Virus record (IMG/VR): IMGVR_UViG_3300012078_000128
Coordinates: 1-64,000 of that record
Source of the DNA: a virus
Direction: 5' to 3' (one strand)
Length of the DNA stretch: 64,000 nucleotides
The notes under the pieces were generated by a model. The model was not told the DNA's origin and ran no database searches. It saw nothing but the letters and a program-made list of their open reading frames with translations. Position numbers and translations under genes: made by a program. Positions within the stretch are counted from its first letter, which is position 1. Every line of letters begins with the position of its first letter. Shown one piece after another: positions 1,472 to 37,807 of the stretch.

Positions 1472-4141
1472 TCAGCTTAAAATTTCACCTTTTTTGAAGA
1501 TTTCTAACAAACTTTTAGGATGCGTTTCATTTAAAACTGACAAAACTCTGAATAGCAATCCATGTTCTATCGCAATTAGATGCTTCACAAGCCTAAACAT
1601 TGTATCTTCTTTTATTTTCAAACTCTTTATATAATTGAGGTGCTCTCTGAAAGTGGAGTCAATTAATCTGTCTCTTTCTTTCTTATTGGAGTATTTTTTT
1701 GCATATAAACTCTGTGTTTCTCTATCTAATAGACTTATTCTTTTCATAATATTGTCAAATTGTTTCTCATTAGCTCTTTGTCGGGGTTTCTCTAGTAACA
1801 GGCTATCTATTAAAATAGAACTTTCTCTGGTACTATGAATATTTTCTTCAAGGTTTTTAATTAAATAATCCATAGGACAGTCACACATCTTAATGTTTCT
1901 TTCAATAGTTTTACTTTGACTCACATATCTCCAAAACAATGGTTTTTTCTTTCTTTCTTTTATAGACGGGATACTTTCAACATTTTTAATCTCTTTTGTG
2001 ATATCTATTTCATAAAATTTCTTTGCCATATCAATAGCAATTCCACTGAGAATTGTCATAACATCTACTTTTTTTAGTAGATTTTCAACTTTATGTTCAT
2101 CAACACACAAATTATTTTTCAAATCCCAGTAATAGGACATACATAACTGTCCTAAGTTAACGACTTTCCCTATGTCTGTTTGACTATTAGATAGTTGGTT
2201 GTCAATATCATACATATCTTTTGTAGTAAGTTTGTATTTCTTCTTCTGTCCTTCTATATGGTTAATGCATACTTTGTAATTACCAAAGCATTCTTTTGCT
2301 AATGCTAGCAATTTGTCATTATCAAATAGAAGTACAGTATCTGAATCATAATCAGCCCCTGAAAGTATGTCTTGTAATGCAAAGTTAATTGCGTTTACGC
2401 ACACTATGTTAGGTGTTAAGTTGAAGTATTTCTCAATTTCTTTCACTTGTTTATTCTTCACTACCAACACATTAGAAGGGGAGGTGTTAGGATTTCTAAA
2501 GCCGACATACTCTTTGTCAAAATCGAACAAATTAGTATAAACTTCATTATTCTTAAGTGTGTGCTTATTTTCACTTATATCAAATTTACCGATAGCATGT
2601 TTTAGAAATTCTAAAGGATTCCCTAGCATTACACAGTAGTCACCATTCAGTTTGATTTTACCTTTTTTAGCGTGGCTTCTTTGTGAGTATATAAATTGCC
2701 TTCTTACTTTTTTAAAGTTATTTGTTCTAATAAAATCCTTATTGTGTTCATACAAATCTACATAGACCTTATTATTATTGATGATAGTCGCAGATTCTCT
2801 TAGTTTTTGAATGAAAAACAAATCATCATTTTTAAGTCTATCTATATATTCGTATTCGGTTTCTACTAATTTTTTAATATCTTTTTGTTTGATCGGTAGA
2901 CAGTTGACCATTTGGTAAGAGGTTTGCTGTAGCAATCTTTTATCTAAATCTCTGCCTATTTTAGACTCTTTCTCATTTTTACAAACACCAAACAAACTTC
3001 CATCTTCTTTTACTTTAGACCTCCAATAGTTCCACATATCACTATCATTTTTTGTTTTTAAAACGTGTGTAAATTTGAAGACTTTCACACTATTGGGAGT
3101 TGTGATGAGCTCGATATCTTTTGCGAATAACTTATTCCCGAATTTATCGGTTATTTGCCAATCATCATAGTTTATTTCTTTAGGACAATTATTCTTAAAA
3201 AACTCTTGAATGTTACAATTGAAAGCTGCTGACTTGAACATGTGATTCCTTAAAAGCTTCATTGAAGTACCGTCTTCAAAGTGCTTGGAGTCCAATAAAG
3301 ATTGCCCATCAAATAATGAGTTGCTGACAGTTGTTTTTTCTTTGAAGCTGTCCAAGAAACCATCTTTACCTTTTTTTACAACATTGCACACCTGTTCAAA
3401 TTCACTATCTACGTCCTCAATTAGTAAAATTTTATCTGGATTTAAGGTCATAGTAGATTCAATAGATGAACCAACAAGAGATTCATATGCGAGTAAACCA
3501 GCTAAATCAATATTCATTCCTTTTCTTATGGGTAAATTCAATCTTGACCACTTAATCATTTTGTTATATAGCTCTTTTTTGATAAACAAACATTGTCCCG
3601 TTCTACTTTTAGAAGATGACCGTTTATACGCAACGTACTCTGTAGCCTTTGTTTTACCTGTTTTTTCATTTGTTCGGGTAATTTTAAATCCCTCGGTATA
3701 TAAAATCTTTCTTAGATCAGAAGCACTGATTGAATTCCACGATTCATTATTTTCTTCTATGGTGACAAGAAAATCATTAAGTCTTCCTAATGATTCTGGA
3801 TTATTTTCATTATTTATTTTCTTTTTATAGACAATATTGCTTAATTCTTTTGCGGATTTCACTTTCTGTTTGAACTTCACATTAATAATATCGTCACTAA
3901 TATCTTTTTCTCTGTTTTTTAAGTACTTTACATTTAATCCTGAATTTCTAAGCTTAATTAATTCTAGACTGTGCGGTATCATTCCAACGTAGTCATAATT
4001 TATGTAGGAGTCTCGATGCATATGGTTGTAAATATCATTCGCTTCAAGGCTTAAAATATAAACTGGCTTCTCTCTGATCTCTTTTTTCACTAGGTTTATC
4101 CTTTCTCCTATTTCTTTTGATAAGCCTAAAGATATTATCAC
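1472..4141 (-). CDS. yonO: YonO-like single-subunit RNA polymerase (RdRP/two-barrel family)
   Basis: 889 aa ORF next to the HU gene, as yonN-yonO in SPbeta. Motif block GFRNPNTSPSNVLVV...ILSGADYDSDTVLLFDND resembles the R-x-P...SGGDxDGD catalytic block of QDE-1-type RdRPs/YonO; DYDSD is encoded at 2339-2353. The GTG at 4090 with SD GGAGAAAGG is a more likely start than 4141. Confidence 0.7.
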   Translation of the reverse strand: MIISLGLSKEIGERINLVKKEIREKPVYILSLEANDIYNHMHRDSYINYDYVGMIPHSLELIKLRNSGLNVKYLKNREKDISDDIINVKFKQKVKSAKELSNIVYKKKINNENNPESLGRLNDFLVTIEENNESWNSISASDLRKILYTEGFKITRTNEKTGKTKATEYVAYKRSSSKSRTGQCLFIKKELYNKMIKWSRLNLPIRKGMNIDLAGLLAYESLVGSSIESTMTLNPDKILLIEDVDSEFEQVCNVVKKGKDGFLDSFKEKTTVSNSLFDGQSLLDSKHFEDGTSMKLLRNHMFKSAAFNCNIQEFFKNNCPKEINYDDWQITDKFGNKLFAKDIELITTPNSVKVFKFTHVLKTKNDSDMWNYWRSKVKEDGSLFGVCKNEKESKIGRDLDKRLLQQTSYQMVNCLPIKQKDIKKLVETEYEYIDRLKNDDLFFIQKLRESATIINNNKVYVDLYEHNKDFIRTNNFKKVRRQFIYSQRSHAKKGKIKLNGDYCVMLGNPLEFLKHAIGKFDISENKHTLKNNEVYTNLFDFDKEYVGFRNPNTSPSNVLVVKNKQVKEIEKYFNLTPNIVCVNAINFALQDILSGADYDSDTVLLFDNDKLLALAKECFGNYKVCINHIEGQKKKYKLTTKDMYDIDNQLSNSQTDIGKVVNLGQLCMSYYWDLKNNLCVDEHKVENLLKKVDVMTILSGIAIDMAKKFYEIDITKEIKNVESIPSIKERKKKPLFWRYVSQSKTIERNIKMCDCPMDYLIKNLEENIHSTRESSILIDSLLLEKPRQRANEKQFDNIMKRISLLDRETQSLYAKKYSNKKERDRLIDSTFREHLNYIKSLKIKEDTMFRLVKHLIAIEHGLLFRVLSVLNETHPKSLLEIFKKGEILS

Positions 4142-8364: not shown

Positions 8365-8453
8365 TTTACATTGAATGTAAATTCAATGTACTTATAAAGT
8401 AACTTACGCATAGGCTTATTTTAGAACAACATCAAATTTACATTCAATGTACA
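8365..8453. promoter_or_regulatory. parC-like palindrome cluster upstream of the actin-like gene
   Basis: 13-bp palindromes TACATT-N-AATGTA at 8367-8379 and 8439-8451, plus a degenerate copy at 8378-8391. Confidence 0.55.
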
Positions 8454-8470
8454 TGAAAGGTGGAGTTAAT

Positions 8471-9319
8471 GTGGAGATATTGGGGATTGACGCAGGTAAT
8501 AGCAACATAAAAGTCGTTGGTAATAAAGGAGAATTAACATTCCCATCAGCTTTAGGTGAGCATAGAGAAAGAAAACTGGTGCAAAAGTTCAGCGAAAATG
8601 ACATTGAATACGAATTTAGAGGAACGAAAGGCTTTGCAGGCACGTTGGCTAAATATGAAAGTCAATTTTCGGTTTCTAAAATGGGGGCTACTAAGGCTCA
8701 CAAGGAGATGTTAATTAGAGTTTTATTAGGAATCACACGTTATTCAAATGGAAACAACTTTAAGATTATCGTAGGCCAACCAATTAGCTACCACATTGAA
8801 GAAGAAAAAAACAAAATGAAGTCAATTTTAGTTGGCTCTCATGAAATTGAAGTAAATGGACAACATAGATTGATAAATATTGAAGATGTAGAAGTTGCAG
8901 CAGAATCGGGATCAGCATTCTGGTCTAATCCAACTAATGGTCTGGTTCGGATACTGGATATAGGAAGTGGAACCGTTAATGTCGCTACACTTATTGAAGG
9001 ACGTTATATAGATAAAGACAGTTTTACAATAACTGATGGTTTAGAAACACTTGTTAGCAACGATTTAAACGCTTTTGCTCGTAAAATTGCAATAGATACG
9101 CTTAAACGATGGGATGAAAACGATTTGGTTTTTTTATGTGGTGGCGGGGCAGAAAAGATGGAGAAATATATAAGAGACCACTATTTTAATACGAAGGTAT
9201 TAAAACCACAACTACAGTACAAAGACAATGATGGGGTAATACAAGGAAAACAATTATCACCGATATATGGGAATGCAGTTGGTTACTTCAACATTGCAAA
9301 GAAACAATGGTCTCAATGA
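8471..9319 (+). CDS. ParM/AlfA-like actin-family partition ATPase (copy 1)
   Basis: Phosphate-1 GIDAGNSNIKV, phosphate-2 ILDIGSGTVNV, adenosine motif LCGGGAE. The GTG at 8471 follows SD AAAGGTGGAG; the ORF track starts at 8447. Confidence 0.8.
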   Translation: MEILGIDAGNSNIKVVGNKGELTFPSALGEHRERKLVQKFSENDIEYEFRGTKGFAGTLAKYESQFSVSKMGATKAHKEMLIRVLLGITRYSNGNNFKIIVGQPISYHIEEEKNKMKSILVGSHEIEVNGQHRLINIEDVEVAAESGSAFWSNPTNGLVRILDIGSGTVNVATLIEGRYIDKDSFTITDGLETLVSNDLNAFARKIAIDTLKRWDENDLVFLCGGGAEKMEKYIRDHYFNTKVLKPQLQYKDNDGVIQGKQLSPIYGNAVGYFNIAKKQWSQ

Positions 9320-9543
9320 GCAAATTTGTAAATAAGGGAGTAAGTTTTAATTTGTCGGATATTGACCAAAAGAAGATGTATGAACATGCTATGAAACGCA
9401 CCAATTTTTCTTCATATGTTAAGCGACTTATTCAACGAGATATGGAAGGTTATAGCTTGTCTAATACCAATGAGCATAAGCCTGTCCAAAGCAAATTAGA
9501 ACCACTCAATTTCAACTCAGATGATATGAAAAGGCTACTCTAG
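9316..9543 (+). CDS. Ribbon-helix-helix adaptor (ParR/AlfB-like)
   Basis: ATGA overlap with the actin gene stop. KGVSFNLSDIDQKKMYEHAMKRTNFSSYVKRLIQRD fits a CopG/Arc-type RHH. Confidence 0.6.
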   Translation: MSKFVNKGVSFNLSDIDQKKMYEHAMKRTNFSSYVKRLIQRDMEGYSLSNTNEHKPVQSKLEPLNFNSDDMKRLL

Positions 9544-9706: not shown

Positions 9707-9853
9707 TTAATCAATGACACGATACTCATATAAAACTTCTAAAGCCTTCTCTAATTGTTCAACTGAAATTCCAGCTTCATGTGCAATAATGTGTTCTTGA
9801 TTTCTTAGTCTTTGCTCATATAGTTTAGTCTTGTCGGAAATGTCGAATAGCAT
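9707..9853 (-). CDS. Small hypothetical protein (48 aa), divergent from the XRE gene
   Basis: Own translation MLFDISDKTKLYEQRLRNQEHIIAHEAGISVEQLEKALEVLYEYRVID. SD AAGGGGAG upstream. Confidence 0.4.
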   Translation of the reverse strand: MLFDISDKTKLYEQRLRNQEHIIAHEAGISVEQLEKALEVLYEYRVID

Positions 9854-9983
9854 ATTATTTTCTCCCCTTGTCCAAAGTATCTTCAATTTGTTTTACAATA
9901 TTTTCAAAATCCTTGTTCATATTAATTCCGTCCTTTGTTGTATGGTATTGATGGTAGTTTGTACAGAAAGGTGAGTGTTATAC

Positions 9984-10391
9984 ATGGTAAAAATTATAGT
10001 TGAATTGGATGAGAAGAAGTATCAGCAAATTAGCGACACAGTAAATATGATTAATCAAAGAAACAAACTTCTTAAGAAGGAAGATCGCTACACAATTGAG
10101 CATTTCATTATTGGTTCTACAATGGATAAATTAGACCTTCTTGATAATATTGTATCTAATCAGCAGCACAATATTGATGAAAAAGTACAATTATTGAACA
10201 GTTTTAAACAAATAGCACAAGAAAAAGGTATAAAACAGGTCGATATATGTAAGAAGTTGGGCATAAGTAAGGGTTTGTTGAGCCAAATCTTCAGTAATAA
10301 GGTAAATATGAGTATGGAAACTTTTTTTAAAATATGGATTGCTCTGGAATGCCCGCCAATACAAAGTTGTTTTACCTTCAAGGAAAAATAA
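9984..10391 (+). CDS. XRE-family HTH regulator
   Basis: C-terminal KGIKQVDICKKLGISKGLLSQIFSNKVNMSMETFFKI is a typical HTH_XRE. The ATG at 9984 follows SD AAAGGTGAG. Confidence 0.7.
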   Translation: MVKIIVELDEKKYQQISDTVNMINQRNKLLKKEDRYTIEHFIIGSTMDKLDLLDNIVSNQQHNIDEKVQLLNSFKQIAQEKGIKQVDICKKLGISKGLLSQIFSNKVNMSMETFFKIWIALECPPIQSCFTFKEK

Positions 10392-10472: not shown

Positions 10473-10676
10473 ATGATTGGATCATTAATAATACTAGGTA
10501 AGGTTGCTACAGTATGCGGGGCGGGATTTGGTATTGCAACAGCATTAGAATGGTTTACAGATATAAAGGTTAAACCTGCTAAGAGTATTGTTCAACTGGG
10601 TTCAAACAACAAAGGGGGAAACGAAAATGACAATAAAATTGAACATCTCAAGCAGAGAGTTAGACAACAAGGTTAA
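10473..10676 (+). CDS. Small membrane protein (1 TM + polar tail)
   Basis: SD AGAGGGGGTG. N-terminal MIGSLIILGKVATVCGAGFGIATALEWF is hydrophobic. Confidence 0.55.
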   Translation: MIGSLIILGKVATVCGAGFGIATALEWFTDIKVKPAKSIVQLGSNNKGGNENDNKIEHLKQRVRQQG

Positions 10677-11145
10677 ACACATTCCATTTAACACGATTCA
10701 TCTTAATGAAAAAAAGAAGAAAACTGAAACTTTTATGAAAGTGAATGTAGGGGAGGTGAAAAACAACAGATTTATAAAAGCAGGCGCGTTAGTATCAGGT
10801 TTAACTATGTCAATGTTACCCAAAGTTGCACATGGAGAAGCTATAGAGACAACAGAAAATGTACAACAAACAATAACTCCAGCAGAAGTATTAGAGTATG
10901 GATTAACAATAGGGAAAATGGGGGTTGGCATAGCAGTAGGAATGTCGATAGTAATGCTCACATTCACAGGAATATTAATGATGCTGAAACAGAAACAAAA
11001 AAGCAAAGAATGGACTTCAGACATTATAAAAGGACTTGTTCACTGTTTAGTTGCTATTCCAGTCGTATTCGCGATTTATTACATTTCAACAAGCCTTTTC
11101 GGAAGCATAGATTTCACAAATCCAACATTCTTAAATACACCCTAA
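10627..11145 (+). CDS. Membrane protein with long leader, signal-like segment and two TM helices (VirB2/TrbC-like topology only)
   Basis: The ATG at 10627 lies 7 nt after SD AAAGGGGGA. FIKAGALVSGLTMSMLPKVAHG-EA is signal-like, followed by two hydrophobic helices separated by KQKQKSKEW. Confidence 0.5.
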   Translation: MTIKLNISSRELDNKVKHIPFNTIHLNEKKKKTETFMKVNVGEVKNNRFIKAGALVSGLTMSMLPKVAHGEAIETTENVQQTITPAEVLEYGLTIGKMGVGIAVGMSIVMLTFTGILMMLKQKQKSKEWTSDIIKGLVHCLVAIPVVFAIYYISTSLFGSIDFTNPTFLNTP

Positions 11146-12260
11146 TCCCCTTCACAGCCATATCTTCATTTACCTTATCCTCTATAACTAATAACGCCTA
11201 TGCAGCATCAGAAAGAAAGTTTTTACAAAAGAATATTGATACTTATAAATCTGACAATAGCTTTATAAATGAGATGAAAAATATTTCAGTTAGCTTTAGA
11301 GAGATTGGAGACAAGTTAAATGGTCTAACAGAATGGTTCAAGCATTTACCAAAGACTATTGAGCAAGGAAGCATGGATCTGATATCTAGTATCTATTCTC
11401 TAGTTGGAAATTTAATACTTAAGACACCTTTGTGGATTTTCGACAATCAATGGTTCAACAATAATACTTATTTATTTAGCATGGTATCTGTAGGGATTGT
11501 TACAGTATTAACTACAATTGAAGGTATTAAGAGGATGCTAAATAAGAAACATGTAAATTTAAAAACAATAATGAAACGTTGGTTTTGGGTAGCTGGACTG
11601 AATACAATTATTCCATTTTTGTTCATTAATACTTTCAGATTATTAAATTGGTTATCAGACAAAATTATAAACTTGAATGGAAATATAATTAAGAACACTG
11701 CTCAGAATGCAACAGCACCTTTCGACTTATTTGTAATGGTTATATTTAGCTTAGTGTTAGTCGGAATTACAATTCCTACATTAATGACAAACAGCCGCAG
11801 ATTCTTCGATCTCATTACATTAGGTATCATAAGTCCGTTGGCGATGACAGCATACATTTTCGATCCATATAAACATTTGTTTACTCAATGGTGGTCAAGT
11901 GTGAAACACCTATCTATGGTTCAGGTTATATATGCTTTCTACTTAATGATTATAGGCTTATTAATTTATGGTATCCCTACACCTGATGACACAATGGGAG
12001 TAGTTTTTAAATTCCTTCTAGTTATTGGAGGCTTTATGAGGCTGATGAATCCTCCTCAGTTTATGAATAAACATCTAGACGGTAGTGGAAGTATTACTGA
12101 TGAATTTGGTAGAGCCAAAAAAACTAAAAAGAGTATCATTGGTAAATTTAGGGAGAGCGTGAAGGTTGTTAAAAATCCAATTAACGCTGTGAAATTCTTA
12201 TCTAAAGGAAAGCAACATAAAGTAGTAACAGGTAATACAAGGATGGACAGATATCATTAA
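11010..12260 (+). CDS. Polytopic membrane protein (VirB6/TrbL-like topology only); start unresolved
   Basis: Signal-peptide-like RKHRFHKSNILKYTLIPFTAISSFTLSSITNNAYA-AS, then at least 5 hydrophobic helices. The only canonical in-frame start (11010) has no SD and overlaps the upstream gene by 136 nt. Confidence 0.5.
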   Translation: MDFRHYKRTCSLFSCYSSRIRDLLHFNKPFRKHRFHKSNILKYTLIPFTAISSFTLSSITNNAYAASERKFLQKNIDTYKSDNSFINEMKNISVSFREIGDKLNGLTEWFKHLPKTIEQGSMDLISSIYSLVGNLILKTPLWIFDNQWFNNNTYLFSMVSVGIVTVLTTIEGIKRMLNKKHVNLKTIMKRWFWVAGLNTIIPFLFINTFRLLNWLSDKIINLNGNIIKNTAQNATAPFDLFVMVIFSLVLVGITIPTLMTNSRRFFDLITLGIISPLAMTAYIFDPYKHLFTQWWSSVKHLSMVQVIYAFYLMIIGLLIYGIPTPDDTMGVVFKFLLVIGGFMRLMNPPQFMNKHLDGSGSITDEFGRAKKTKKSIIGKFRESVKVVKNPINAVKFLSKGKQHKVVTGNTRMDRYH

Positions 12261-12272
12261 GGGGTGAAGAAT

Positions 12273-14450
12273 ATGCTTAACCTTACAATGGAGCACGAAG
12301 AAATAAGTATGGAAGAACGTATGTCAAAAGATTTTTTCGGCGTGCAATATGTGGTTACTAAAGATGGATTAAAAAGTTCAAATTATACCCCATCCCTTAT
12401 AGACAGGGGATGGTTAAGAATGGGATCAGAAGACAACGGATTCAAGTTTACTATGGCTGAAGCTAAATTAGTTAGACCGTATTTCATGCCAATTAGATGC
12501 GATGCTAAAGGATTCTTCATTGAGTACTTGGAAGAGTTGTCTAATGTGCTATATGAGGAAGATGAATACATTACATTTGCGTTCTCATTTCATAAAAAAA
12601 CAAAGTGGAGAGAACAAGCTATAGAGATGTATCAAAGCTATCTTAATGGTGTTGATTATCCGATGGGTAATAAGTATTTCAGACACCTACAGGAAAGTAT
12701 CTTAAATGTGAAGAACAACATACTTAGTAACACAAGTGAACGGGAGTACTCTCAAGATATTGAAGATAAGATTCTCGACAATGGATATAGTATGAATTTT
12801 ATCATCCAGATATATTCAGATAGATGTGATGAACTGATTGATTTGGTGCAATCTATATTTGATCAATATGCTTATTATAATGGGATTAAGATAGGAAATT
12901 GTCCAAAAAGAAACATCCACTACTTTGAGGATAAAAACCAAATCATGAGCAAACAAGAAATATTGTCTTTACTAAGTACTGATTCTGCAATTGCAAGTAC
13001 AGAAGTGAGTGAGAAGAAATCTTTGAGTATAGTTAGTAGTGGAAGCAAGCTTAACGTTGAAATATTGCCCGAAATTGAAGGGAACGTCCCAATTAAGATT
13101 GATGATACATTGGAATGTAAACTGGCTGAAGCGATGAAACGTGTAGGACTGATTAAACAAGCAAGATTATATAACAGTAGTATAAATAGTGGATCAAGAT
13201 TAGTTGTTGTTCAATGTGATGTACCTACTGGTAAGAATTATAGCGATGTAGAAAAGAAGAAGAAAGATATTAGAGTGGCTTTAGGAGTGAAATCATTAGG
13301 TATAGAACAAGGAGAAGCTGCCAACACAATTAAGTTTAGCATTCCACACAATGATCATAGAATTATCTCACTGAGAGAAATGGTGCTAATGGAAGAATGG
13401 GAGAAATTTAGAGAGAAAAATGCATTGAGTTTTGTTTGTGGCATGGATGAGTTAGATAGTCCCGTATTTCTAAGTCTAAGAAAGCTAGCGCATTTACTTG
13501 TAGCAGGAACAACTGGAAGTGGGAAAAGTGTATTCCTAAATCAGATGATATATACGCTGTTAAGTAACCATAGACCAGATGAATTACAGATGTTCTTGAT
13601 TGATCCTAAGAAGATTGAGTTTATGGATTATGAAGGTTTCCCACAAGTACAGAAGGTTGTAACTGACATGAATGAGGCAGGTAATATATGTACTTCGTTA
13701 GTTCTAGAGATGGAAGAAAGATACGATAAGATGAGTAAATTAAGTTGTAGAGAGATTGATGATTATAATACCAAGAGTAAAGATAAGATGCCTTATATTG
13801 TATTTGTAGTCGATGAATTTGCTGATTTAATGACTGTTGCGAGTAAAAGTATAGAAGAATCAATAATGAGACTGGGGCAGAAGGCAAGAGCCTGTGGTAT
13901 ACATTTAATTATTGCTACACAGAGACCAAGTGCTGATATATTAAGTGGAACAATTAAGGCTAATATACAAAATGCTATTAGCTTTAACTTGGGAAGCAAT
14001 AGAAATTATAGAACTGTATTTGATGAGAGTATTCCATTTGATTCACTTCTAGGCATGGGAGATGGTGTTGCGAGAATTGAAAGGTGGAAGAAAGATTTTC
14101 AACGTTTTCAAAGTCCTACTATTCATACTAATAATGATGTTGTATTGGATGCGATAGAAAAGCTAAAGGAATATTACAGTGGATTGGGTAGTGTTGAAAT
14201 GATTGATACACTAGATATAGTTGAAGAGGTTAGTTTAATTGATGAATTGAAGATGATTATTGCTGATACAGGAGAAACTAGAGTAGGCGAGTTAAGGAAG
14301 TTAATGGGGATTAAATCAGAGACAATCGGTGAGTTAATGAGTGAACTGACTAAAGAGGGATGGTTAATGAAGCATAAGAGTAGATCAAAAGGTTATGAGT
14401 TGATTATAAAACAAGATGAATTGGATAAGTGGAAAAATAAGCGTATATAA
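12273..14450 (+). CDS. FtsK/SpoIIIE-family DNA translocase-like ATPase, soluble, with C-terminal winged helix
   Basis: Walker A VAGTTGSGKSVF, Walker B VVDEFADL, ATQRPS motif, and a gamma-like wHTH (ETRVGELRKLMGIKSETIGELMSELTKEGWL). No N-terminal TM segments. The ATG at 12273 follows SD AAGGGG. Confidence 0.85.
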   Translation: MLNLTMEHEEISMEERMSKDFFGVQYVVTKDGLKSSNYTPSLIDRGWLRMGSEDNGFKFTMAEAKLVRPYFMPIRCDAKGFFIEYLEELSNVLYEEDEYITFAFSFHKKTKWREQAIEMYQSYLNGVDYPMGNKYFRHLQESILNVKNNILSNTSEREYSQDIEDKILDNGYSMNFIIQIYSDRCDELIDLVQSIFDQYAYYNGIKIGNCPKRNIHYFEDKNQIMSKQEILSLLSTDSAIASTEVSEKKSLSIVSSGSKLNVEILPEIEGNVPIKIDDTLECKLAEAMKRVGLIKQARLYNSSINSGSRLVVVQCDVPTGKNYSDVEKKKKDIRVALGVKSLGIEQGEAANTIKFSIPHNDHRIISLREMVLMEEWEKFREKNALSFVCGMDELDSPVFLSLRKLAHLLVAGTTGSGKSVFLNQMIYTLLSNHRPDELQMFLIDPKKIEFMDYEGFPQVQKVVTDMNEAGNICTSLVLEMEERYDKMSKLSCREIDDYNTKSKDKMPYIVFVVDEFADLMTVASKSIEESIMRLGQKARACGIHLIIATQRPSADILSGTIKANIQNAISFNLGSNRNYRTVFDESIPFDSLLGMGDGVARIERWKKDFQRFQSPTIHTNNDVVLDAIEKLKEYYSGLGSVEMIDTLDIVEEVSLIDELKMIIADTGETRVGELRKLMGIKSETIGELMSELTKEGWLMKHKSRSKGYELIIKQDELDKWKNKRI

Positions 14451-16086
14451 TATATAGAGTGTGGCTATAATGGAGATACAGCATTGGTATTATTCAAAAG
14501 AATCCCCCCCTCCTATATAGTTTATATAACTGATTAACATGTTGGATATCTGTGAAAGCAGACAATCCTATGTGTTATTTTTTTATCCATAAAACATCGA
14601 GAACGATTTTAAGAGGTTTCATGAGAAAATAAAAGAAATTGGATTATATATAGATGAAATATGGGTTAGAGTGACTTAAATTGGTTGCTTTGACCCATAT
14701 TTTTGTTGGGTTATCGTAAAAGTAGCATAACATTGAGATTTAAGAATGAAAAACAATAAAAGATAGAGAACATGATGAAAATATTTAAAGATGTGGAGTG
14801 TTAAAACGCAGGAGAAATAGTGGTTTGTATCGCAAGCACACGATACGGAAAACGATACAAATAAAGTGAAAAATGGTCTACTGCAAGATAGTCAGCTAGG
14901 CAGTATATCAACCTATAATATGGAAGTTGTTGATGTTTTTATGCCCCCCATAATGACCGAATAATATATGTTATACAGTCATTTATAAATATCTATCTAT
15001 ACAGGGCACACCTTTGCCAACTAACACAGATTTGTAAGAGTGGGGGGAATACGATGCAAGTGTTCGCTTGCATATAATAATCGCATGACAAGAAGGACTC
15101 TAGCTGAAAGTATTACATATCATTCATATCACCAACATCATCATACCTATCTAACTCACATCCTCATACCACCACATCAACATAATACAATATACGAATC
15201 TGTATATCGTATATCCATAATCTACATAACTCCTTTTCTCTATCATCATGTCTGCTATCCTTTGTATATCTAACATCACCTACACAAACACTTCACATAG
15301 TCTATATACTCAAATCTTCTCATATAACATACATAAGGAACTTTTCTTTCTCTCTATACAATCATACTAGGCAACCTGATATGAAGTCTCTAAGCGTCTC
15401 TAAGCAATCCATTTTTCAAATATCAAATATCAAAACTTCATAACAAAAGAATATATAATATATAAATCCAATAATATTCTCTAACACTAGACTGTGTTGT
15501 AAAAAAGTATACTCAAATATAAACAATGTGAAGGCTAACATAATATCATGACTAACCAATATGTAAACCAACGATCCGAATCAACTCAGAACTCAATTAA
15601 ACAAGCACTAACTATATCTTTAATTAATAAAGGAAACATCATCTGAACTTAGTGAAGCAGTACAGAACGCTACTGAATCCAAACTATCCGACATTACAGA
15701 CATAATAGACATCATGCCATATATCGAATATCCATAAAATAAATAATCAAAAATTAAAAATAGATAATGGTATATTCTTTTTTCATTTTCAAGTATTCCT
15801 TTAATTATCTAATGTAAATCTATATAGATCTGCATCATCGTCATAACTACACGTCACACACTAATCAACCACACAATATATACTAGACTAACACACACTA
15901 ATCAAAGCATGTGTCACACTATGCACATGTCATCAATGCATATGCTATACACACATCACATACAAACATATAAGCTATGCTATATACCATGCTAGGTCAT
16001 CTTACTATCATACATAAGCCACACTAATACTTTATACTAACAAACAAAATAACCAAAAGAAAATATATAATATATGAATATAATAC

Positions 16087-19174: not shown

Positions 19175-20257
19175 ATGCAAACCAATTTTGCTGATTTTAA
19201 ACAAGCCAAAGATAAGCCTAAAAGACGGATGAATGATGGCTTCAATACAGAAGTTTACAATCAAATTATGCGGTTTCTAAGAGATCACGAAGAAGAAAGT
19301 AAGAACACAGCTAAGAACTACGAGAGACATATACGCACTTTCTTTATCCAGACTAAAAATAAGAAAATAGAGCATCTAAAAAAAGAAGACTTATTATTTG
19401 AAACCGAAGAGTTCGAGGATTACAAATATTATATGTTACATGATTTAGGATTGAGCACATCAAGTGTTAGTGTAGCTTTAGCAGCAATAAAAGGTTGTTA
19501 TAAACATTTGCATAATAGAAAGTCCGCCAAAGACGATAAAAAAAGGTTGATTGAAGATATTTCTTTTTTAGATATTAAGCATACAAAAGTAATCAATAAA
19601 TCTTGGGATGGCTTAACATCACAAGAAGTAAAAAAGGTAGCTACTTATATGGGTACTAAAAACAGAACAGGTAAAATCAAACGTGCATTTTTATTATTTT
19701 CATTAGATACGTGTATGCGTGAGGATGAATGTTTAAATGTAACATGGGACGATTTTATTATTAAAAATAATGAAGTAATTGTCAAAACAATTGCAAAAGG
19801 AAAAAAAGACATGCAAAGAAGAATCAGCAGGACGGTTTATAATATCTTATTAGAAATAAAACAAGAAAACGCAAACAAAGTATTTAATATAAGTAGCTCA
19901 ACAGTACAAAGAATGCTACCTGAAATCAGAAAATATCTTAATATTGACCCTAAACAACGCAGAATAGTATTTCATTCAATCCGTAAAGCTGGTGCACAGC
20001 ATATATGGAAAAAGACTAGAGACATTAATCAAGTAAGACGTATGTTAGGTCATGAATCAATAGCTACTACAGAGCTGTATATTGATAAGAATGAAAACTA
20101 TGGAGTATTTGGTGCAGTCTCAGACGAGTTCGAAACAGACGATCAGTTATTCGAAAAGGTATCACACAGAGAATTGTTAAATGCAATTAGAGAGATGAAC
20201 AACGACACAAAATTATTCATAAATCTAAAACTAAAGGAAAGAATGAATCGAAAATAA
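19175..20257 (+). CDS. Tyrosine recombinase/integrase-family protein (SPbeta YopP-like position and size)
   Basis: C-terminal HSIRKAGAQHIW...MLGHESIATTELY carries the H-x-x-R ... H ... Y catalytic residues. Confidence 0.8.
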   Translation: MQTNFADFKQAKDKPKRRMNDGFNTEVYNQIMRFLRDHEEESKNTAKNYERHIRTFFIQTKNKKIEHLKKEDLLFETEEFEDYKYYMLHDLGLSTSSVSVALAAIKGCYKHLHNRKSAKDDKKRLIEDISFLDIKHTKVINKSWDGLTSQEVKKVATYMGTKNRTGKIKRAFLLFSLDTCMREDECLNVTWDDFIIKNNEVIVKTIAKGKKDMQRRISRTVYNILLEIKQENANKVFNISSSTVQRMLPEIRKYLNIDPKQRRIVFHSIRKAGAQHIWKKTRDINQVRRMLGHESIATTELYIDKNENYGVFGAVSDEFETDDQLFEKVSHRELLNAIREMNNDTKLFINLKLKERMNRK

Positions 20258-20263
20258 AATAAT

Positions 20264-20292
20264 TTGCACATAGGCTATATAACTTGTATAGT
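20264..20292 (+). promoter_or_regulatory. Candidate promoter
   Basis: TTGCAC (20264-20269), 17-nt spacer, TATAGT (20287-20292). Confidence 0.4.
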
Positions 20293-20335
20293 AATAATAT
20301 ATTATGATTATGATTGTGAAGGGTGAGAGCAAACT

Positions 20336-21673
20336 ATGAAGCCTAATATGACTAGAGAAATGTTAGAACAAGAATTAATTCAGCCTACTCTAAAATTAAA
20401 ACGTAGGAGAAAAGTAACAGATTCCATAAAAAAACATTTGTTTTCTGAACATGCTCTATTAGAGGGAAACGTACAAAGTTTAATTGCTGACCCAAGAAAT
20501 GAATTACCAAAAGTAGATAATAGAATTTTATTTTTGTTCGCTGAACAAATTTATAAACAAACTCTTGAGGATAAAGTTAATCCAGATCACTATTACAATG
20601 AACATGAAGTGAAATTAGCACGTAAATACTCAGGAAATATTATAAAAAAAGATGAAGTGAGATTACCCTTAACTTTGAACAATTTTATTGAAGTTAACTT
20701 TAATGAATATGTAGGTAAAATCACAATTGAAGATTTAGCAAAACTTAGTTCATCATTGTTGAATTATAATTTTGATATTCAACGTGAAGCAGTAAAAGTT
20801 AAACGTGGTAATAATATTGAGTTAGAAGCTAAATTAGTACAAAAGAATGTAAGAGAGATTAAAAACAATCTTAAAGCAGGAACACAGAAAACTACACAAA
20901 TTGTTATTAATGCATCTGCAGGAACTTCCGACGATGGAGAAGAACTACTTTATAATCCAGAAACATTACAACTTACTATTAATGAAGGTACAATTCTTGA
21001 TATTGTGGATGGTTATCACCGAAGTAAGGCAGCAGAATTAGCACATAACGAAGATCCTTCTATTACTCGTGAATTTACTGTTCTTATGCTTAACTGTACA
21101 GATGATGAAGCTAAAAAATATCAAGGGCAGCTTGCAGAAGCAACACCTATTTCTAGAACACGCCAAAAACAACTATCAAGCAAACGTATGGCTGATGAAG
21201 TTGTTAGAAATATTATGGCACAATCCGATCTTAAGGGACATGTCTCAAGTGACGTGGTAAATCTAAGTAATGCTGAATATGTAACATATGAAATGTTAGC
21301 GCAAAATATTGAAAATTATTTTGATATTAAGTTAAATATGGATGTTCGTAAAGTGAGCGCATATCTTAAAGATTATTTTGATATGTTAGTTGGATCATAT
21401 CCAGACGCTTTCTTAAACAATCCTTCTGAAGTACGAAAAACATCTGTAATTAATGAGAATACAATGTTTGCAGGGTATGTAAAATTAGCTTCAAGAATGT
21501 ATAAGGATAGCATTGACGTAATGAAAGTTATTGATTACATGGAGAAAATTGATTTCAGTCGTCTTAATCCTTTGTGGAAAGAAATCGGGTACTTACAAGA
21601 AGACGGAAAGTTAGGAAACACTGATAGAGCAAAGAAACAGATTGTGGAATATTTTAATAATTTAGAACTATAA
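20336..21673 (+). CDS. ParB/Srx-fold protein with DGxHR motif (DndB/DGQHR-like; YopQ-like position)
   Basis: ILDIVDGYHRSKAAE matches the DGQHR-type ParB-like nuclease-fold signature. 445 aa. Confidence 0.55.
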   Translation: MKPNMTREMLEQELIQPTLKLKRRRKVTDSIKKHLFSEHALLEGNVQSLIADPRNELPKVDNRILFLFAEQIYKQTLEDKVNPDHYYNEHEVKLARKYSGNIIKKDEVRLPLTLNNFIEVNFNEYVGKITIEDLAKLSSSLLNYNFDIQREAVKVKRGNNIELEAKLVQKNVREIKNNLKAGTQKTTQIVINASAGTSDDGEELLYNPETLQLTINEGTILDIVDGYHRSKAAELAHNEDPSITREFTVLMLNCTDDEAKKYQGQLAEATPISRTRQKQLSSKRMADEVVRNIMAQSDLKGHVSSDVVNLSNAEYVTYEMLAQNIENYFDIKLNMDVRKVSAYLKDYFDMLVGSYPDAFLNNPSEVRKTSVINENTMFAGYVKLASRMYKDSIDVMKVIDYMEKIDFSRLNPLWKEIGYLQEDGKLGNTDRAKKQIVEYFNNLEL

Positions 21674-21716
21674 TAGTGTATAATATCACCAAATTAGAGA
21701 GAAGGGAATTCGAGAA

Positions 21717-22700
21717 ATGATGGCAACGGACACAATGTATTACAATCAAGATATAAAAGAAGCTTATATTGAAAACGAATTTGATAATGAAGATACAATA
21801 AAACTTCAAGAAACTCTTTTTAAGAAAACAAAGTCCACGGAAGAATTTTTCGGGAGAGATTTAGCTACTTTTACATTAGATGAAATTGCTATTGCCTTCA
21901 GAAACTTTAACCCTGCAACTATGAACAGCGCAAGTAATCTAAAAAGCAGAATCAAAAGTTATATTAGATGGGCAATAGAACACGGATATAGACAGAATAA
22001 TATGAATCCCTTAGATGGTGTAGTTGGTTGGGAAAGACAATTTGTAGATGAAGTTACAGAAAGACATTTATCATCAGAAAGAATAGCTAATATTCAAGAG
22101 GAATTACCTAATTTTCAAGATGTTGCCTTAATTCAATGTATTTTTGAAGGGGTTTCAGGAGTAGGCCTTTCAGAATTAATTAATATGAACTATTCTGACA
22201 TTAATTTTACGAAAAAAGAGATACACCTTAGAAATGATAAAGGTGAAGACAGAGTTGTCAAAGTCTCTAACGACTGTCTGAACTATTTAAATAGAGCTTA
22301 TAATGAAAGTAATTACGTTAATATTATCAGTGGATCAGAAACCTCATTGATTGAGTGTGGGGAACGCATTTTTAAAAATACTCGCTCTAAAAATACTCAA
22401 TACAAGGAAATATCTAAATTAACTTTACCTAAACGATTAGCTAGAATTAAAGATCTTTATGAATTAGATGAGTTTTCTACAAATTCTTTAACTGAATCAG
22501 GACAAATTAAAATGGCTGTTGATTTATACAAAGAAAATGGAAAACTAGATAAGGAAGAGTTCGAATTAATTTCAGATCAATTTAAAACTAGTAGAATAAA
22601 GTATGATGGATATGATTATGTAAACATTCATAAAATGCGTCATTATATTACTAGAGAGAACATTAAAGAGCTATATAACATAGACATAGAAACACTTTAG
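21717..22700 (+). CDS. Tyrosine-recombinase-like protein with degenerate active site (candidate MrpR/YopR-type repressor)
   Basis: Core-binding-like N-terminus (NLKSRIKSYIRWAIEHGY). The block FEGVSGVGLSELINMNYSDI aligns to the TG-L-R-x-S-E-L box, but the Arg is replaced. Size and position match SPbeta yopR. Confidence 0.5.
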   Translation: MMATDTMYYNQDIKEAYIENEFDNEDTIKLQETLFKKTKSTEEFFGRDLATFTLDEIAIAFRNFNPATMNSASNLKSRIKSYIRWAIEHGYRQNNMNPLDGVVGWERQFVDEVTERHLSSERIANIQEELPNFQDVALIQCIFEGVSGVGLSELINMNYSDINFTKKEIHLRNDKGEDRVVKVSNDCLNYLNRAYNESNYVNIISGSETSLIECGERIFKNTRSKNTQYKEISKLTLPKRLARIKDLYELDEFSTNSLTESGQIKMAVDLYKENGKLDKEEFELISDQFKTSRIKYDGYDYVNIHKMRHYITRENIKELYNIDIETL

Positions 22701-36051: not shown

Positions 36052-36852
36052 ATGATAAATTGCCATTGTCATACTGACTATTCTAACATCAGACTTTTAG
36101 ATGCTTTGCAATCTGTAGAAGAATTAATTATAACATCACATGAAATGGGCATGAAAGGCGTGGCGATTACGGAGCACGAAAGCGTTAGCTCTCATCCGAA
36201 AGCTTTAAGGACGGTAAGAGAACTGAAGAAAAAGAAAATAATCCCCGAAGATTTCACTCTTATTCTTGGAAACGAGCTATACTTATGCCCCGATTTAGAA
36301 TCAGTAAAAGATAATTATAAATCAGGAGAGACTAAGTTTCCCCACTTCTTAGTTTTAAGCAAAGACCTAATCGGACACGAACAGTTACGAACTTTGAGTA
36401 GTCGTGCATGGTCAAGAAGTTTTTACACAGGTCTTATGGAAAGAGTCCCTACACTTTATTCAGACTTAGAGGAAGTAGTTAAACCAAACAAAGGACATCT
36501 TATTGCCTCGTCTGCTTGCTTAGGAAGTGCAGTCAATATTCACTTGTTAGCAATAAAAGAAGCAGAAAAAACCAGTAACCACCCTAAAGCTAATTACCAT
36601 AAACAAGAATTACATAAATTCATTCTATGGTGCATTGATATATTTGGTCAAGATCACTTCTTTATTGAGTTGCAACCTGCATTAAGCGAAGAGCAAGTTT
36701 ACTGTAATAAGAAGCTTGTTGATATTGCTGACCATTATGGACTAAAACGAATAGTAACAACAGATGCTCACTATGGACGACCAGAAGACAGAGACATCCA
36801 TGAAGCTTTTCTTAATGCCAAGCAAGGCGAGAGAGAGGTAGCGCAATTTTAT
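36052..36852 (+). CDS. DNA polymerase III alpha (DnaE-type, YorL-like), exon 1 (PHP domain)
   Basis: INCHCHTDYSNIRLLDA, AITEHES and VTTDAHY are PHP motifs. Polymerase-like sequence ends at ...GEREVAQFY. The ORF-track tail to 36906 reads into the intron. Boundary is +/- about 10 nt. Confidence 0.8.
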
Positions 36853-37310
36853 AGGTTTTGTGAGCGAGAAAACCCACTATTTTTATGGTGGGATGTTAGC
36901 CCATAAATAGACTGTAAGAATGTAGGGAAACTTGCATTTAGCGACTATGTAATTACTCATATAGTCCAACTAAGAAACTGAATTGCTGGAAACTCGTAAA
37001 GCTAGCTAAACTACAACATAGGGATATTTAAACCCAAGTGTGAATGTTGCGAAAGCAGAAAAAATTAGTTAGATGACATAAGGTTAAATCCTACGTGTTG
37101 AACAATCGAAAATCAGCAGCCAAGCCTAGAAATAGGAAGGTTCAACGACTATTCCTCGTGAAGGAAGTACACACAAGCGTGTGGAAGTGGTTTCGCCGTA
37201 CTGGGTAAGGCCAACGGATAAGATATAGTCTGTGCTTGTGCGAAAGCACAAGAAGTTCATAAGAGAACTGCATAGGGATTAGCGAACTTATGTGAACATA
37301 CTCTACATGA
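36853..37310 (+). ncRNA. Group I intron catalytic core (candidate)
   Basis: AAGATATAGTC (37220-37230) matches the J8/7-P7 signature, and AGACT at 36909-36913 can pair with it. GAAA-capped stems at 37048-37057, 37125-37136 and 37235-37252. Further hairpins at 36873-36892 and 36942-36965. No ORF. Confidence 0.6.
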
Positions 37311-37383
37311 TAAAGTCTAAAAAGTTTTAATATTTGTGTATCAAAGTATTGATTTCATACACAACTTGATGTACAATAAGTAT

Positions 37384-37785
37384 ATGAGTAACGAATACAG
37401 ATATTCAAAAACAACTGTATCGTTAATCAATTACCACTTTGTTTTTTGCCCAAGATATCGTCGGAAAATATTTGAGAATTCCGAAGTTGATACTAGATTT
37501 AAAGCCATTGTTTCAGAAATATGTTCTGATAACGAGTGGACAATCCTAGCAATAGAAACAGATAAAGATCACTGTCATCTTTTTGTGAATGTGCAACCTA
37601 CATTTTCGCCCTCTGACATAATGAAGACGATAAAAGGTATATCTTCACGAGAATTAAGACAAGAATTTGAACATCTAAGTAAAATGCCTAGTGTTTGGAC
37701 GCGATCATTCTTTGTTTCAACTGCTGGAAATGTATCTAGTGAAACCATCAAGCGATATGTTGAGAATCAAAGAACAAGATATTGA
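37384..37785 (+). CDS. tnpA: IS200/IS605 Y1 (HUH) transposase TnpA
   Basis: MSNEYRYSKTTVSLINYHFVFCPRYRRKIF, HUH motif HCHLFV, catalytic-Tyr region SSETIKRYVENQ. Confidence 0.9.
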   Translation: MSNEYRYSKTTVSLINYHFVFCPRYRRKIFENSEVDTRFKAIVSEICSDNEWTILAIETDKDHCHLFVNVQPTFSPSDIMKTIKGISSRELRQEFEHLSKMPSVWTRSFFVSTAGNVSSETIKRYVENQRTRY

Positions 37786-37807
37786 TTACGTTAAGGAGGT
37801 GACAGAA

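Follow-up and report, generated by a model that had tools for sequence, protein, structure and literature searches.

Positions 10473–14450 of the window, a stretch of 64,000 nucleotides (nt) that makes up positions 1 to 64,000 of the IMG/VR virus record IMGVR_UViG_3300012078_000128, hold an operon of four genes (open reading frames ORF1 to ORF4) for three predicted membrane proteins and a soluble FtsK/SpoIIIE-type ATPase. We propose, with a probability of roughly 45%, that this cassette is a self-contained, membrane-docked device for the translocation of double-stranded DNA (dsDNA), built from parts of type IV secretion systems (T4SSs) or conjugation systems and working without VirB4. Because ORF4 is soluble, a membrane partner would be needed; ORF1 to ORF3 are the sole conserved candidates for it, and two of them are related to the pilin and the inner-membrane channel of conjugation machines. 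The T4SS-derived character of these partners, the strict conservation of the gene set across phages and megaplasmids, and a candidate −1 frameshift that extends over the whole family appear to be new. The gene set as such is a known, widespread, and functionally uncharacterised cassette of phages and plasmids, in the sense that its ATPase gene has been described and the cassette has not.

Proteins of the cassette

The four-gene operon recognised in a preliminary description of this DNA is real. Its tightly packed, co-oriented ORFs on the + strand are listed below, and they agree with a public gene call made independently on the contig. The account given of their products was also correct overall, apart from the start of ORF3, which is undefined, and a "gamma" label for the C-terminal domain of ORF4, which is unproven. 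For comparison, related loci were searched with the window proteins; they comprise SIOphi, three plasmids, and 30 IMG/VR loci, to which two remote members were added.

10473–10676, + strand: ORF1, bitopic membrane protein of 67 amino acids (aa); Pfam DUF7394; phrog_3796, E=1e-6
10627–11145, + strand: ORF2, 172-aa pre-pilin-like protein; phrog_3528, E=2e-35
10728–12260, + strand: open −1 frame of ORF2 that ends as ORF3, with the homologous region at 11127–12260; phrog_3750, E=6e-112
GTG 12264 or ATG 12273 to 14450, + strand: ORF4, soluble FtsK/SpoIIIE-type ATPase of 728 or 725 aa; phrog_3551, E=2e-232 over the full length

The Pfam FtsK_SpoIIIE domain (PF01580) was found at residues 372–556 of ORF4 (E=5e-48, 163.9 bits versus a cut-off of 24) and in all 19 members of the ORF4 family that were compared. 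The FtsK alpha/beta motor of Protein Data Bank (PDB) entry 2IUU (Pseudomonas FtsK) aligns to residues 305–600 with E=6e-56, and the ORF4 motor consists of a partial alpha plus beta unit with Walker A GTTGSGKS (415–422), Walker B VVDEFAD, and TQRPS. Walker A, Walker B, and the arginine finger are kept across the phage and plasmid copies. When the ORF4 family profile was compared with PDB sequences, FtsK (2ius, 4e-91) ranked above TcpA (6o1w, 5e-36), which was the best non-FtsK match, and above EssC/EccC (1e-31 to 1e-34). There is no hydrophobic or transmembrane (TM) segment in the 728 aa of the longer form, and the N-terminal multi-pass anchor of the cellular type is absent; the public gene call starts the protein at ATG 12273 and thus gives 725 aa. 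Residues 1 to ~300 matched no profile or structure that was searched, and a protein homologue search with the N-terminal third of ORF4 returned nothing. The preliminary view of an FtsK/SpoIIIE ATPase with no TM segment and with an unfamiliar N-terminal domain is therefore upheld. A winged-helix-like region is located at ~660–720 near the C-terminus, where weak MarR/HTH_27-type matches fall at 664–706. These comparisons show ORF4 to be a genuine motor of the FtsK-type dsDNA-translocase family, with a predicted winged-helix-like domain at its C-terminus and no anchor.

ORF3 had been likened to VirB6/TrbL, and structure and profile comparisons bear this out. The protein has a signal-like segment (...IPFTAISSFTLSSITNNAYA/A in the window and ...IPF[AT]VxSS...AYA in the family) followed by at least five hydrophobic helices. 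When an AlphaFold2 (AF2) model of ORF3 built with 32 homologues (predicted local distance difference test score, pLDDT, 69) was compared with the PDB by Foldseek, ranks 1–4 were all TrwI/VirB6 of the R388 T4SS, the best being 7o3v_F (E=0.038, probability 1.00, target-normalised template-modelling score 0.45), and the ranks below were noise. With the family hidden Markov model (HMM), the sole relevant match among PDB sequences was again TrwI (residues 174–221; E=2.7, weak), and it fell on SPLALTAWIFD..hlF.QWW, the most conserved stretch of the family. An exhaustive search of a library of 1.84 billion proteins with the ORF3 profile led, on the same stretch, to a 700-aa protein (P0179, E=2.9e-5) in which a Pfam TrbL/VirB6 domain (PF04610, 34 bits versus a cut-off of 25.9) spans the matched residues, and hhalign aligned the ORF3 family with this TrbL carrier at 96.7% probability (E=3e-10). 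ORF3 also gave weak NCBIfam matches to TraJ of Bacteroides conjugative transposons and to Mbov_0396, a membrane protein of integrative and conjugative elements. Taken together, the profiles and the model converge, by indirect routes, on ORF3 as a remote homologue of the TrbL/VirB6-type polytopic proteins and, by that relationship, a putative channel.

Two further features of the ORF3 family were seen. The C-terminus (12180–12257 in the window) is a conserved basic tail that ends in TRM-x-R-x-H(G), and this tail is a candidate motif for docking of the soluble ATPase. The ORF3-like protein of 0305phi8-36 has a lipoprotein-type signal (..MFLSGC) 5' of its annotated start.

ORF2 most plausibly starts at ATG 10627, 50 nt inside ORF1, behind the Shine-Dalgarno (SD) sequence aaaggggga; the public call uses the same codon, and a TTG at 10588 was set aside in its favour. 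The window protein has a leader of ~50 aa, a signal-like segment that ends in VAHG/EA, and two hydrophobic helices. In the family alignment, a conserved cytoplasmic leader of ~45 aa is followed by a lysine-rich n-region, a hydrophobic core that ends in AxA, and a mature part of ~100 aa. The latter consists of two hydrophobic helices and, between them, a basic loop in which W-[ST]-x-D-I-I-K-G is invariant. The AF2 model of ORF2, which is of low confidence (pLDDT 49.5), places the helices at 85–123 and 129–158. The comparison with VirB2/TrbC, made at first from topology, is now backed by homology: the orthologue on the Niallia plasmid passes the Pfam TrbC/VirB2 model (PF04956) with 31 bits versus a cut-off of 27.9, and PGAP names it likewise. 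ORF2 of the window itself has sub-threshold matches to T4SS_pilin (PF18895, 14.6 bits) and to an Mbov_0395 pilin-like protein, and the ORF2 family profile had no pilin match among PDB sequences. By the alignment and the TrbC-passing family member, ORF2 fits the design of a VirB2/TrbC pre-pilin.

Distant relatives contain parts of the cassette as fusions. One 620-aa protein (P0185) joins a T4SS_pilin domain (PF18895, above the cut-off) to an ORF3-like domain, and another of 536 aa (P0113) joins an M23 peptidase to an ORF3-like domain. These fusions give Rosetta-stone support to the idea that pilin, channel, and wall hydrolase would act together.

ORF1 is preceded by a strong SD sequence and has a single N-terminal hydrophobic segment and a KWFH-like motif, which reads LEWFTD in the window. 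A protein of this design, 59–78 aa long, is encoded just 5' of ORF2 in 18 of 20 distinct loci; the exceptions are the Niallia locus (L002), with a 39-aa candidate only, and L093, which has none. This conservation shows ORF1 to be a small bitopic protein that is a likely partner in the cassette.

Coupling of the ORF2 and ORF3 reading frames

ORF3 has no evident start of its own. There is no ATG, GTG, or TTG for it between 11010 and 11274, and most homologues likewise are without a usable start before the signal-like segment. ORF3 is mis-started in public records, with annotated lengths of 328–364 aa; gene callers begin it inside or after the signal segment (SIOphi gp123, 0305phi8-36 gp203, and a 328-aa call on this contig) or far upstream.

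In every locus, the ORF3 frame is the −1 frame of ORF2, and it is free of stop codons for 403–496 nt (~140–160 codons) before the ORF2 stop. For comparison, the first ~30 codons of ORF2 have 1–8 stops in their −1 frame, ORF4 has 112 in 729 codons (~0.15 per codon), and 16–35 stops occur in the +1 frame. When synonymous codons were shuffled within ORF2, 1.9–7.5 stops were expected, with a probability of finding none that ranged from <0.0005 to 0.11 per locus; the number observed was 0 in 31/31 loci. The sole start-like codon common to all loci is an NTG that is forced by the invariant Trp codon of ORF2. Initiation at this NTG cannot explain the open frame, because the ~100 codons 5' of it are stop-free as well in 19/19 distinct loci (probability of none, 0.003–0.24 each).

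The open −1 frame always begins 1–8 codons before an invariant Phe of the ORF2 leader. This Phe is encoded as NNT TTT in 24/24 distinct loci, compared with 12.5% of the Phe codons in the neighbouring ORF4 genes. In the window, the last stop in the −1 frame (TGA, 10725–10727) lies just 5' of the T TTT, and the site and an SD-like element that follows it are placed as below.

10731–10737, + strand: candidate −1 recoding site T TTT ATG (zero frame ACT TTT ATG, 10729–10737)
10750–10758, + strand: SD-like element GGGGAGGTG, 16–22 nt 3' of the T-run

At this position, some loci (L002, L003, L004, L095, L102, and L119) have a canonical heptamer, which reads T TTT TTA, T TTT TTT, or C CCT TTT. The SD-like element is of the GGAGG type (GGAGGTG or a close variant) in ~17 of 23 loci, has a fixed spacing after the T-run, and is conserved at the nucleotide level; a possible role is in the internal initiation of a pre-pilin without a leader, or in modulating the frameshift. 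In many phages, an in-frame ATG after this element would start a short classical signal peptide.

The region in which both frames are used (10728–11145) codes in the −1 frame for a basic linker rich in S, R, N, G, and K, with a net charge of +8 to +23 across loci. This composition is as expected for a cytoplasmic linker ahead of the first predicted TM helix. The trans-frame product predicted for the window consists of codons 1–36 of ORF2 continued in the −1 frame and has 544 aa; its predicted junction reads ...KKTETF|YESECR.... Three proteins in which ORF2 and ORF3 appear as a single ORF (P0063, P0141, and P0142) have junctions that differ and are probably indel errors; they were not counted as evidence.

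The codon statistics and alignments show conserved dual coding, the lack of a start proper to ORF3, and a conserved T-run as features of the predicted genes throughout the family. This pattern suggests a programmed −1 frameshift from ORF2 that yields ORF3, the slippage itself being what we infer from it.

Carriers and genomic setting

ORF2, ORF3, and ORF4 were adjacent, in the same order and on one strand, in 34/34 loci and in the two remote members (36/36), so the co-occurrence of the set across phages and plasmids is borne out. The carriers are Bastillevirinae, SPbeta-like phages, 0305phi8-36, and Bacillus-type megaplasmids. In 0305phi8-36, one of the remote members, the cassette corresponds to gp204-203-201, and a "replication initiation by nicking" gene, gp200 (8277–9128 of L118), directly follows the FtsK-like gene. 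The other (L119, CP053689.1), a plasmid of 250 kb recorded under "Arthrobacter citreus," has an alpha/beta-type small acid-soluble spore protein (SASP) gene besides the cassette; the record probably represents a mislabelled Bacillus-type organism. The absence of an adjacent hydrolase, remarked on in the preliminary description, holds for the window and does not hold for the family, as an M23 peptidase gene is found directly 5' of the cassette in about half of the related phage loci (16/30) and the P0113 fusion joins M23 to an ORF3-like domain.

Searches of wider collections gave a consistent distribution. By tblastn, ORF4 matched ~160 Bacillus phages of 125–165 kb over its full length (43–45% identity, 97–99% coverage), with 44% identity and 99% coverage for SIOphi, 000TH008, and others. 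A search for related loci with the single ATPase query yielded none, and one with an ATPase alignment on genome contigs yielded generic chromosomal FtsK only. ORF3 homologues were found in 162 phage records, all of 125–220 kb and 160 of them Bacillus phages, and on 12 plasmids, all of Bacillus type and all typed non-mobilizable. With only 171 matching clusters for its profile in the 1.84-billion-protein library, ORF3 is, as far as profile matches can tell, a specific marker of the cassette. All carriers are large (>115 kb) replicons of Bacillus-type hosts and exist outside the chromosome, either throughout or in one phase.

The four window proteins match PHROG families 3796, 3528, 3750, and 3551 with near-complete profile coverage, and the three small ones are labelled "unknown function" there. 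Because all four belong to PHROG families and ORF2 to ORF4 are collinear in every locus, the arrangement is far from chance. Nor is the ATPase an oddity of the window: it is a well-known homologue of Bastille-like phages (PMC4528723, PMC3853049, PMC3601020). An "FtsK/SpoIIIE homologue" has already been listed as specific to these phages, among sigma-factor and segregation genes and with its function unknown (PMC4528723, PMC3853049, PMC3601020, PMC4113786), and for more than a decade it has been raised as interesting and even as a biosafety concern (PMC4528723). The literature that was found on these phages does not mention a T4SS ancestry of the partners or the coupling of the ORF2 and ORF3 frames, and the upstream genes are annotated as hypothetical or membrane protein.

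A 117-kb metagenomic contig, Logan SRR6448759_198, contains the window sequence with 100% identity. Because the contig has YonO-, YonG-, YonJ-, and MrpR-type genes and an SPP1-type holin, it is, as judged from gene content, from a large SPbeta-like temperate siphophage of 117 kb; a Herelleviridae genome, suggested by best ATPase matches in Bastillevirinae, is ruled out by the same genes. Genes of the contig and its flank include those for HU, YonJ- and YonG-domain proteins, an Amidase_2 endolysin with the SPP1-type holin, XkdX, and a tail fibre. The window and contig also encode DnaB, primase, RecJ, a split PolA, ribonucleotide reductase, ThyA/dihydrofolate reductase, and a sigma factor, and in the contig flank the yonG/yonJ-like SPbeta-type genes are accompanied by two large unannotated genes. 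No near nucleotide relatives of the operon or of 25-kb blocks were found by megablast against phages and plasmids. The following features are near the cassette or bear on the type of phage.

1472–4141, − strand: YonO-like 889-aa protein; phrog_8308, no Pfam match; adjoins the HU gene
8447–9319, + strand: ParM-type actin-like segregation ATPase; phrog_691 partition protein, Pfam ALP_N
9307–9543, + strand: 78-aa partner of ParM, adjoining the ParM gene (ParM/ParR pair)
9975–10391, + strand: helix-turn-helix (HTH) regulator gene of Xre type; PHROG transcriptional-regulator matches, Pfam HTH_3; public call starts at 9984
14657–14702, + strand: inverted repeat forming a hairpin, then a T-rich run, ~200 nt past the ORF4 stop
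19175–22700: lysogeny block with a Phage_integrase tyrosine recombinase, a DndB-like protein, and a protein with MrpR_N_CB and MrpR_C_cat domains

The product of 1472–4141 is probably a YonO-type single-subunit RNA polymerase, because its HU neighbour mirrors the yonO-yonN order of SPbeta; its nearest phage relatives, in Enterocloster/Thomasclavelia phages and human-gut phage contigs, are annotated "RNA-dependent RNA polymerase." The block at 19175–22700 we take to be the equivalent of SPbeta yopP-yopQ-yopR, in which YopR (MrpR) is the master repressor. On that reading, which relies on the equivalence with YopP and YopR (MrpR) of SPbeta, the tyrosine recombinases near the cassette are lysogeny-control genes.

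A ParM-like gene within ~3 kb upstream of the cassette is also found in SIOphi, in several IMG/VR loci, and in 0305phi8-36 (gp207). Homologues of the HTH regulator (E 1e-13 to 1e-15) lie directly 5' of the cassette in the Niallia, pBFI_1, and pBFR_2 plasmids and upstream of it in 0/30 IMG/VR phage loci, so this gene is common to the window and plasmid versions only. An exact Spo0A-box heptamer, TGTCGAA, is present at 9841–9847, ~130 nt 5' of the HTH gene and within a small antisense ORF (9707–9886); it is a weak lead. The hairpin at 14657–14702 is a possible operon terminator, for which a strict terminator scan made no call. Between 14451 and 16250, 1.8 kb are without a credible ORF, and the + strand is A/C-rich there with CACA and CATA runs; this gap could be an origin, a regulatory RNA, or a recognition region. 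No Rfam family or tRNA was found in the window.

Other observations concern the remainder of the window. The PolA-type polymerase gene is split into an N-terminal part (36052–36906) and a main part (38980–42123), between which lie a 149-aa ORF (37336–37785) and a TnpB/IS200-605-type "transposase" (37691–38926, phrog_506). About 2.1 kb (roughly 36850–38993) have 78% nucleotide identity to short "Listeria phage LM 4-11-1 / 4-14-1" records. On the − strand, 55956–57188 and 60495–61589 code for a plasmid replication initiator of the RPA type (PF10134) and another ParM/Alp7A-like actin, and a 102-aa Zn_ribbon_recom fragment lies at 62804–63112. The phage may be maintained as a plasmid, that is, as a phage-plasmid.

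Function, alternatives, and known systems

In a membrane-docked dsDNA pump, ORF1 to ORF3 would form a membrane platform that recruits a soluble hexamer of ORF4, possibly through the unique N-terminal domain of the ATPase and the basic TRMxRxH tail of ORF3. Most of the ribosomes that start on ORF2 would make the pilin-like protein, and a fraction would slip by −1 at T TTT to produce the ORF2 leader joined to the basic disordered linker and the VirB6-like protein; slippage would in this way set a fixed ratio of pilin to channel. The winged helix-turn-helix (wHTH) domain of ORF4 would select the element's own DNA, and ORF4, driven by ATP, would pump dsDNA through the platform; in many relatives the M23 hydrolase would assist. 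Together with the adjacent ParM, the device would allow a large phage or megaplasmid genome to cross a septum and to be inherited or to be trapped in the forespore as a "virospore."

The later steps of this scheme are less certain than the device itself. That the motor threads a whole double-stranded genome through a VirB6/VirB2 conduit across the septum, the conduit being made by a family-wide −1 frameshift, is a tentative idea that we would not bet on. The setting ranked first, in which an extrachromosomal genome is carried across the division or sporulation septum of a Bacillus-type host and most plausibly into the forespore, is similarly doubtful, if not slightly more so. In favour of a septum are the confinement of the carriers almost entirely to large replicons of Bacillus-type hosts, the linkage to ParM in three unrelated phage lineages, and the location of plasmid copies of the cassette near a SASP gene and an sdp operon. 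Sporulation-type sigma factors are encoded near the FtsK/SpoIIIE gene in Bastille-like phages (PMC3601020, PMC4528723), and virulent phage genomes have been documented to become trapped in spores, by a mechanism that is open (PMC12991052).

Several results weigh against a VirB4-less pump, at the level of the parts and of the whole. No VirB4/AAA_10-type protein was found among the scanned window ORFs or in the flanks of the 36 related loci, the rest of the 117-kb contig having been seen in part; a recent review regards VirB4 as the signature subunit of all T4SSs (PMC12857230), and by this criterion the cassette, although made of T4SS-type parts, does not count as one. ORF2 and ORF3 of the window pass none of the curated TrbC/TrbL models directly, and 22 of the 23 ORF2 family members, including that of the window, fall below the cut-off of the TrbC/VirB2 model. 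Foldseek returned nothing for the ORF2 model, which was too poor (pLDDT 49.5), and the E-values of the VirB6 matches of ORF3 are modest (0.04–0.1) on a model with pLDDT 69. As regards DNA recognition, the winged helix that had been called gamma-like retains its weak MarR/HTH_27-type matches, and the gamma identity of this C-terminus is not established, with Pfam FtsK_gamma (PF09397) in 0/19 members of the ORF4 family; no clt-like or KOPS-like repeat cluster or DNA recognition site was found in the 1.8-kb downstream gap, which has only short two-copy repeats. For the frameshift, a canonical X XXY YYZ heptamer is present in neither the window nor L093, with only T TTT universal; no conserved downstream RNA structure (single-sequence fold z-scores ~0; RNAalifold 0 pairs) or recognisable stimulator was seen, and the trans-frame product is a prediction from sequence. 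The link to sporulation is circumstantial, and the window has no excess of TGTCGAA boxes (3 versus 6 expected). The YonO-like gene of the contig is nearest to those of Enterocloster/Thomasclavelia phages.

The next explanation in rank, which we consider unlikely, is a minimal mating apparatus, by which the complete dsDNA of the phage or plasmid would pass into an adjacent cell, as with TraB in Streptomyces, and not across an internal septum. VirB2- and VirB6-like parts are components of mating-pair formation, the link to an M23 hydrolase would fit, and TraB needs neither a relaxase nor VirB4 (PMC4447253, PMC12857230). Carrier plasmids without relaxases also persist in many strains of the B. 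cereus group, and the nicking-type replication gene of 0305phi8-36 directly follows the ATPase gene. However, most carriers are strictly virulent myoviruses, in which the donor is killed within one cycle (PMC4528723). In addition, 12/12 carrier plasmids were typed non-mobilizable, and no VirB4, VirB8, adhesin, or clt-like repeat was found; ORF4 reaches 61.4 bits with the NCBIfam plasmid_TraB model (NF041214) against an equivalog cut-off of 800. VirB8, VirB3, and relaxase were likewise not found in the scanned window ORFs or the flanks of related loci, and no terminase or peptidoglycan hydrolase adjoins the operon in the window, where a 3D-domain protein lies 28 kb away. The initial judgement that the operon, with no VirB4, relaxase, or terminase next to it, represents neither a full T4SS nor a terminase thus remains in place.

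Less probable still is a role in host take-over or exclusion, by which the cassette would interfere with host FtsK, SftA, or SpoIIIE or with incoming DNA and so block superinfection, sporulation, or segregation. Superinfection exclusion had been among the first suggestions, and it received no support from PADLOC, whose models match none of ORF1 to ORF3 and match ORF4 through its generic motor only (SspH, mad8, and HerA). The category of the ATPase in PHROGs is "moron, auxiliary metabolic gene and host takeover," phages of the group carry other genes that manipulate sporulation, such as sigma factors (PMC9429907, PMC3601020), and the HTH regulator weakly matches HTH components of candidate defence systems. 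Against this, the Walker A and B motifs, the arginine finger, and the DNA-binding-type wHTH are kept intact across phages and plasmids, a decoy would hardly need anything as elaborate as a conserved pilin/VirB6 pair linked by recoding, and carriage on megaplasmids argues for a role in maintenance.

In 36 loci, the genes are strictly collinear and the frame-coupled ORF2 and ORF3 stay with ORF4, which argues for the membrane proteins as integral parts of the cassette. It is improbable to a high degree that ORF4 is a cytoplasmic, SftA/FtsK-like helper of segregation or dimer resolution that works with recombinases and ParM, with ORF1 to ORF3 as a tether or unrelated. Such a helper is suggested by the solubility of ORF4, which it shares with B. 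subtilis SftA (PMC9320952), by the adjacent ParM/ParR genes, by two tyrosine-recombinase-fold genes 5–8 kb downstream, and by the activation of XerD by the gamma domain of E. coli FtsK (PMC3130261). Yet FtsK_gamma was not detected in ORF4, and the recombinase-fold genes match Phage_integrase and MrpR and do not accompany the cassette in other loci. The original idea of dimer resolution with the nearby tyrosine recombinase is weakened because such recombinases are not conserved neighbours of the module.

Protein export, in which ORF4 would energise secretion through a complex of ORF1 to ORF3 in the manner of EssC/EccC of type VII secretion, is very improbable. The motor does match EssC/EccC models (TIGR03928, E=7e-28; PDB EccC5 and YukB), but its similarity to FtsK is far stronger (4e-91 versus 1e-31 to 1e-34), it has one ATPase domain in place of the three of EssC plus a C-terminal wHTH, and the cassette has no gene for a small WXG100-like substrate. 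A function of ORF4 as the virion genome-packaging ATPase, to which FtsK/HerA-type packaging ATPases of membrane-containing phages and a weak phrog_2666 terminase match (E=2e-8) might point, is effectively refuted: tailed phages package with a terminase and portal, the carriers are tailed phages (with SPbeta-type yonG/yonJ-like genes in the contig flank), and the cassette is also found on plasmids and is located among replication and segregation genes, not head genes.

If the cassette is indeed a dsDNA pump that acts at a septum, it would provide the missing active mechanism behind virospores and the inheritance of plasmids in spores, and it would join SpoIIIE and TraB as a third type of FtsK-driven conduit for DNA. 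The relatives of VirB2 and VirB6 would then extend to viruses and to Bacillus-type monoderms. A frameshift that fixes the stoichiometry of pilin and channel, which is not described for any T4SS, would at the same time be a new and deeply conserved recoding event. The long-noticed phage SpoIIIE gene would become the motor of a conserved four-gene module with conjugation ancestry, and the vague label of "sporulation-related" becomes testable.

Among known systems, Streptomyces TraB with its Spd proteins remains the closest working analogy, in keeping with the preliminary notion of a minimal module for dsDNA transfer like that of TraB. TM segments are part of TraB itself, whereas ORF4 has none, scores 61 versus 800 with the plasmid_TraB model, and has no clt/TRS-like repeat that was found. 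The hosts of TraB are Actinomycetes and those of the cassette are Bacillota. To our knowledge, the Spd proteins are not relatives of VirB2 or VirB6. The likeness lies in a hexameric, FtsK-like motor for dsDNA that has a wHTH at its C-terminus and functions with no relaxase or VirB4, and TraB together with the small integral membrane Spd proteins moves whole double-stranded replicons over septal or hyphal cross-walls with no other T4SS subunit (PMC4447253, PMC12857230).

The FtsK/SpoIIIE homologue of Bastille-like phages (pham 473; PHROG 3551) is of the same family as ORF4 over its full length. It has been viewed as an isolated gene whose function is unknown or "sporulation-related" (PMC4528723, PMC3853049, PMC3601020). 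The window copy is in an SPbeta-like temperate phage and has, in place of the M23 gene, an HTH regulator like that of the plasmids.

Conjugative T4SSs of monoderms (the Tcp system of pCW3 with TcpA and TcpH, Con of ICEBs1, and Tn916) resemble the cassette in combining a VirB6-like protein with an FtsK-family ATPase and, as in relatives of the cassette, a wall hydrolase. Unlike them, the cassette is without VirB4 (TcpF/ConE), a VirB8-like protein, VirB3, and relaxase, its ATPase is soluble with a novel N-terminal domain, and it has a VirB2-type pilin. The potential for a conjugative pilus among monoderms has been described for Patescibacteria only (PMC12857230, PMC9905601).

The archaeal Ced and Ted systems move dsDNA with VirB2-like pilins, a VirB6-like channel, and one ATPase of the FtsK/HerA superfamily, and the N-terminus of the Ced channel protein resembles a pilin (PMC9905601), which is echoed in the shared N-terminus predicted for ORF2 and ORF3. 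Their ATPase is VirB4/CedB-like, and they are archaeal, chromosomal systems for DNA import after UV damage, with no sequence similarity to the cassette detected; with the CedB model (NF041017), the window ORF4 gave no match and the Niallia protein gave E=0.019 over the P-loop only.

Host SpoIIIE, SftA, and FtsK have the same alpha/beta motor fold and catalytic motifs as ORF4. ORF4 resembles SftA in being soluble and in having to be brought to the membrane or septum (PMC9320952). It differs from these host proteins in having no 4-TM anchor or detectable FtsK_gamma domain, and in its unique 300-aa N-terminal domain, its own membrane partners, and its location on mobile elements.

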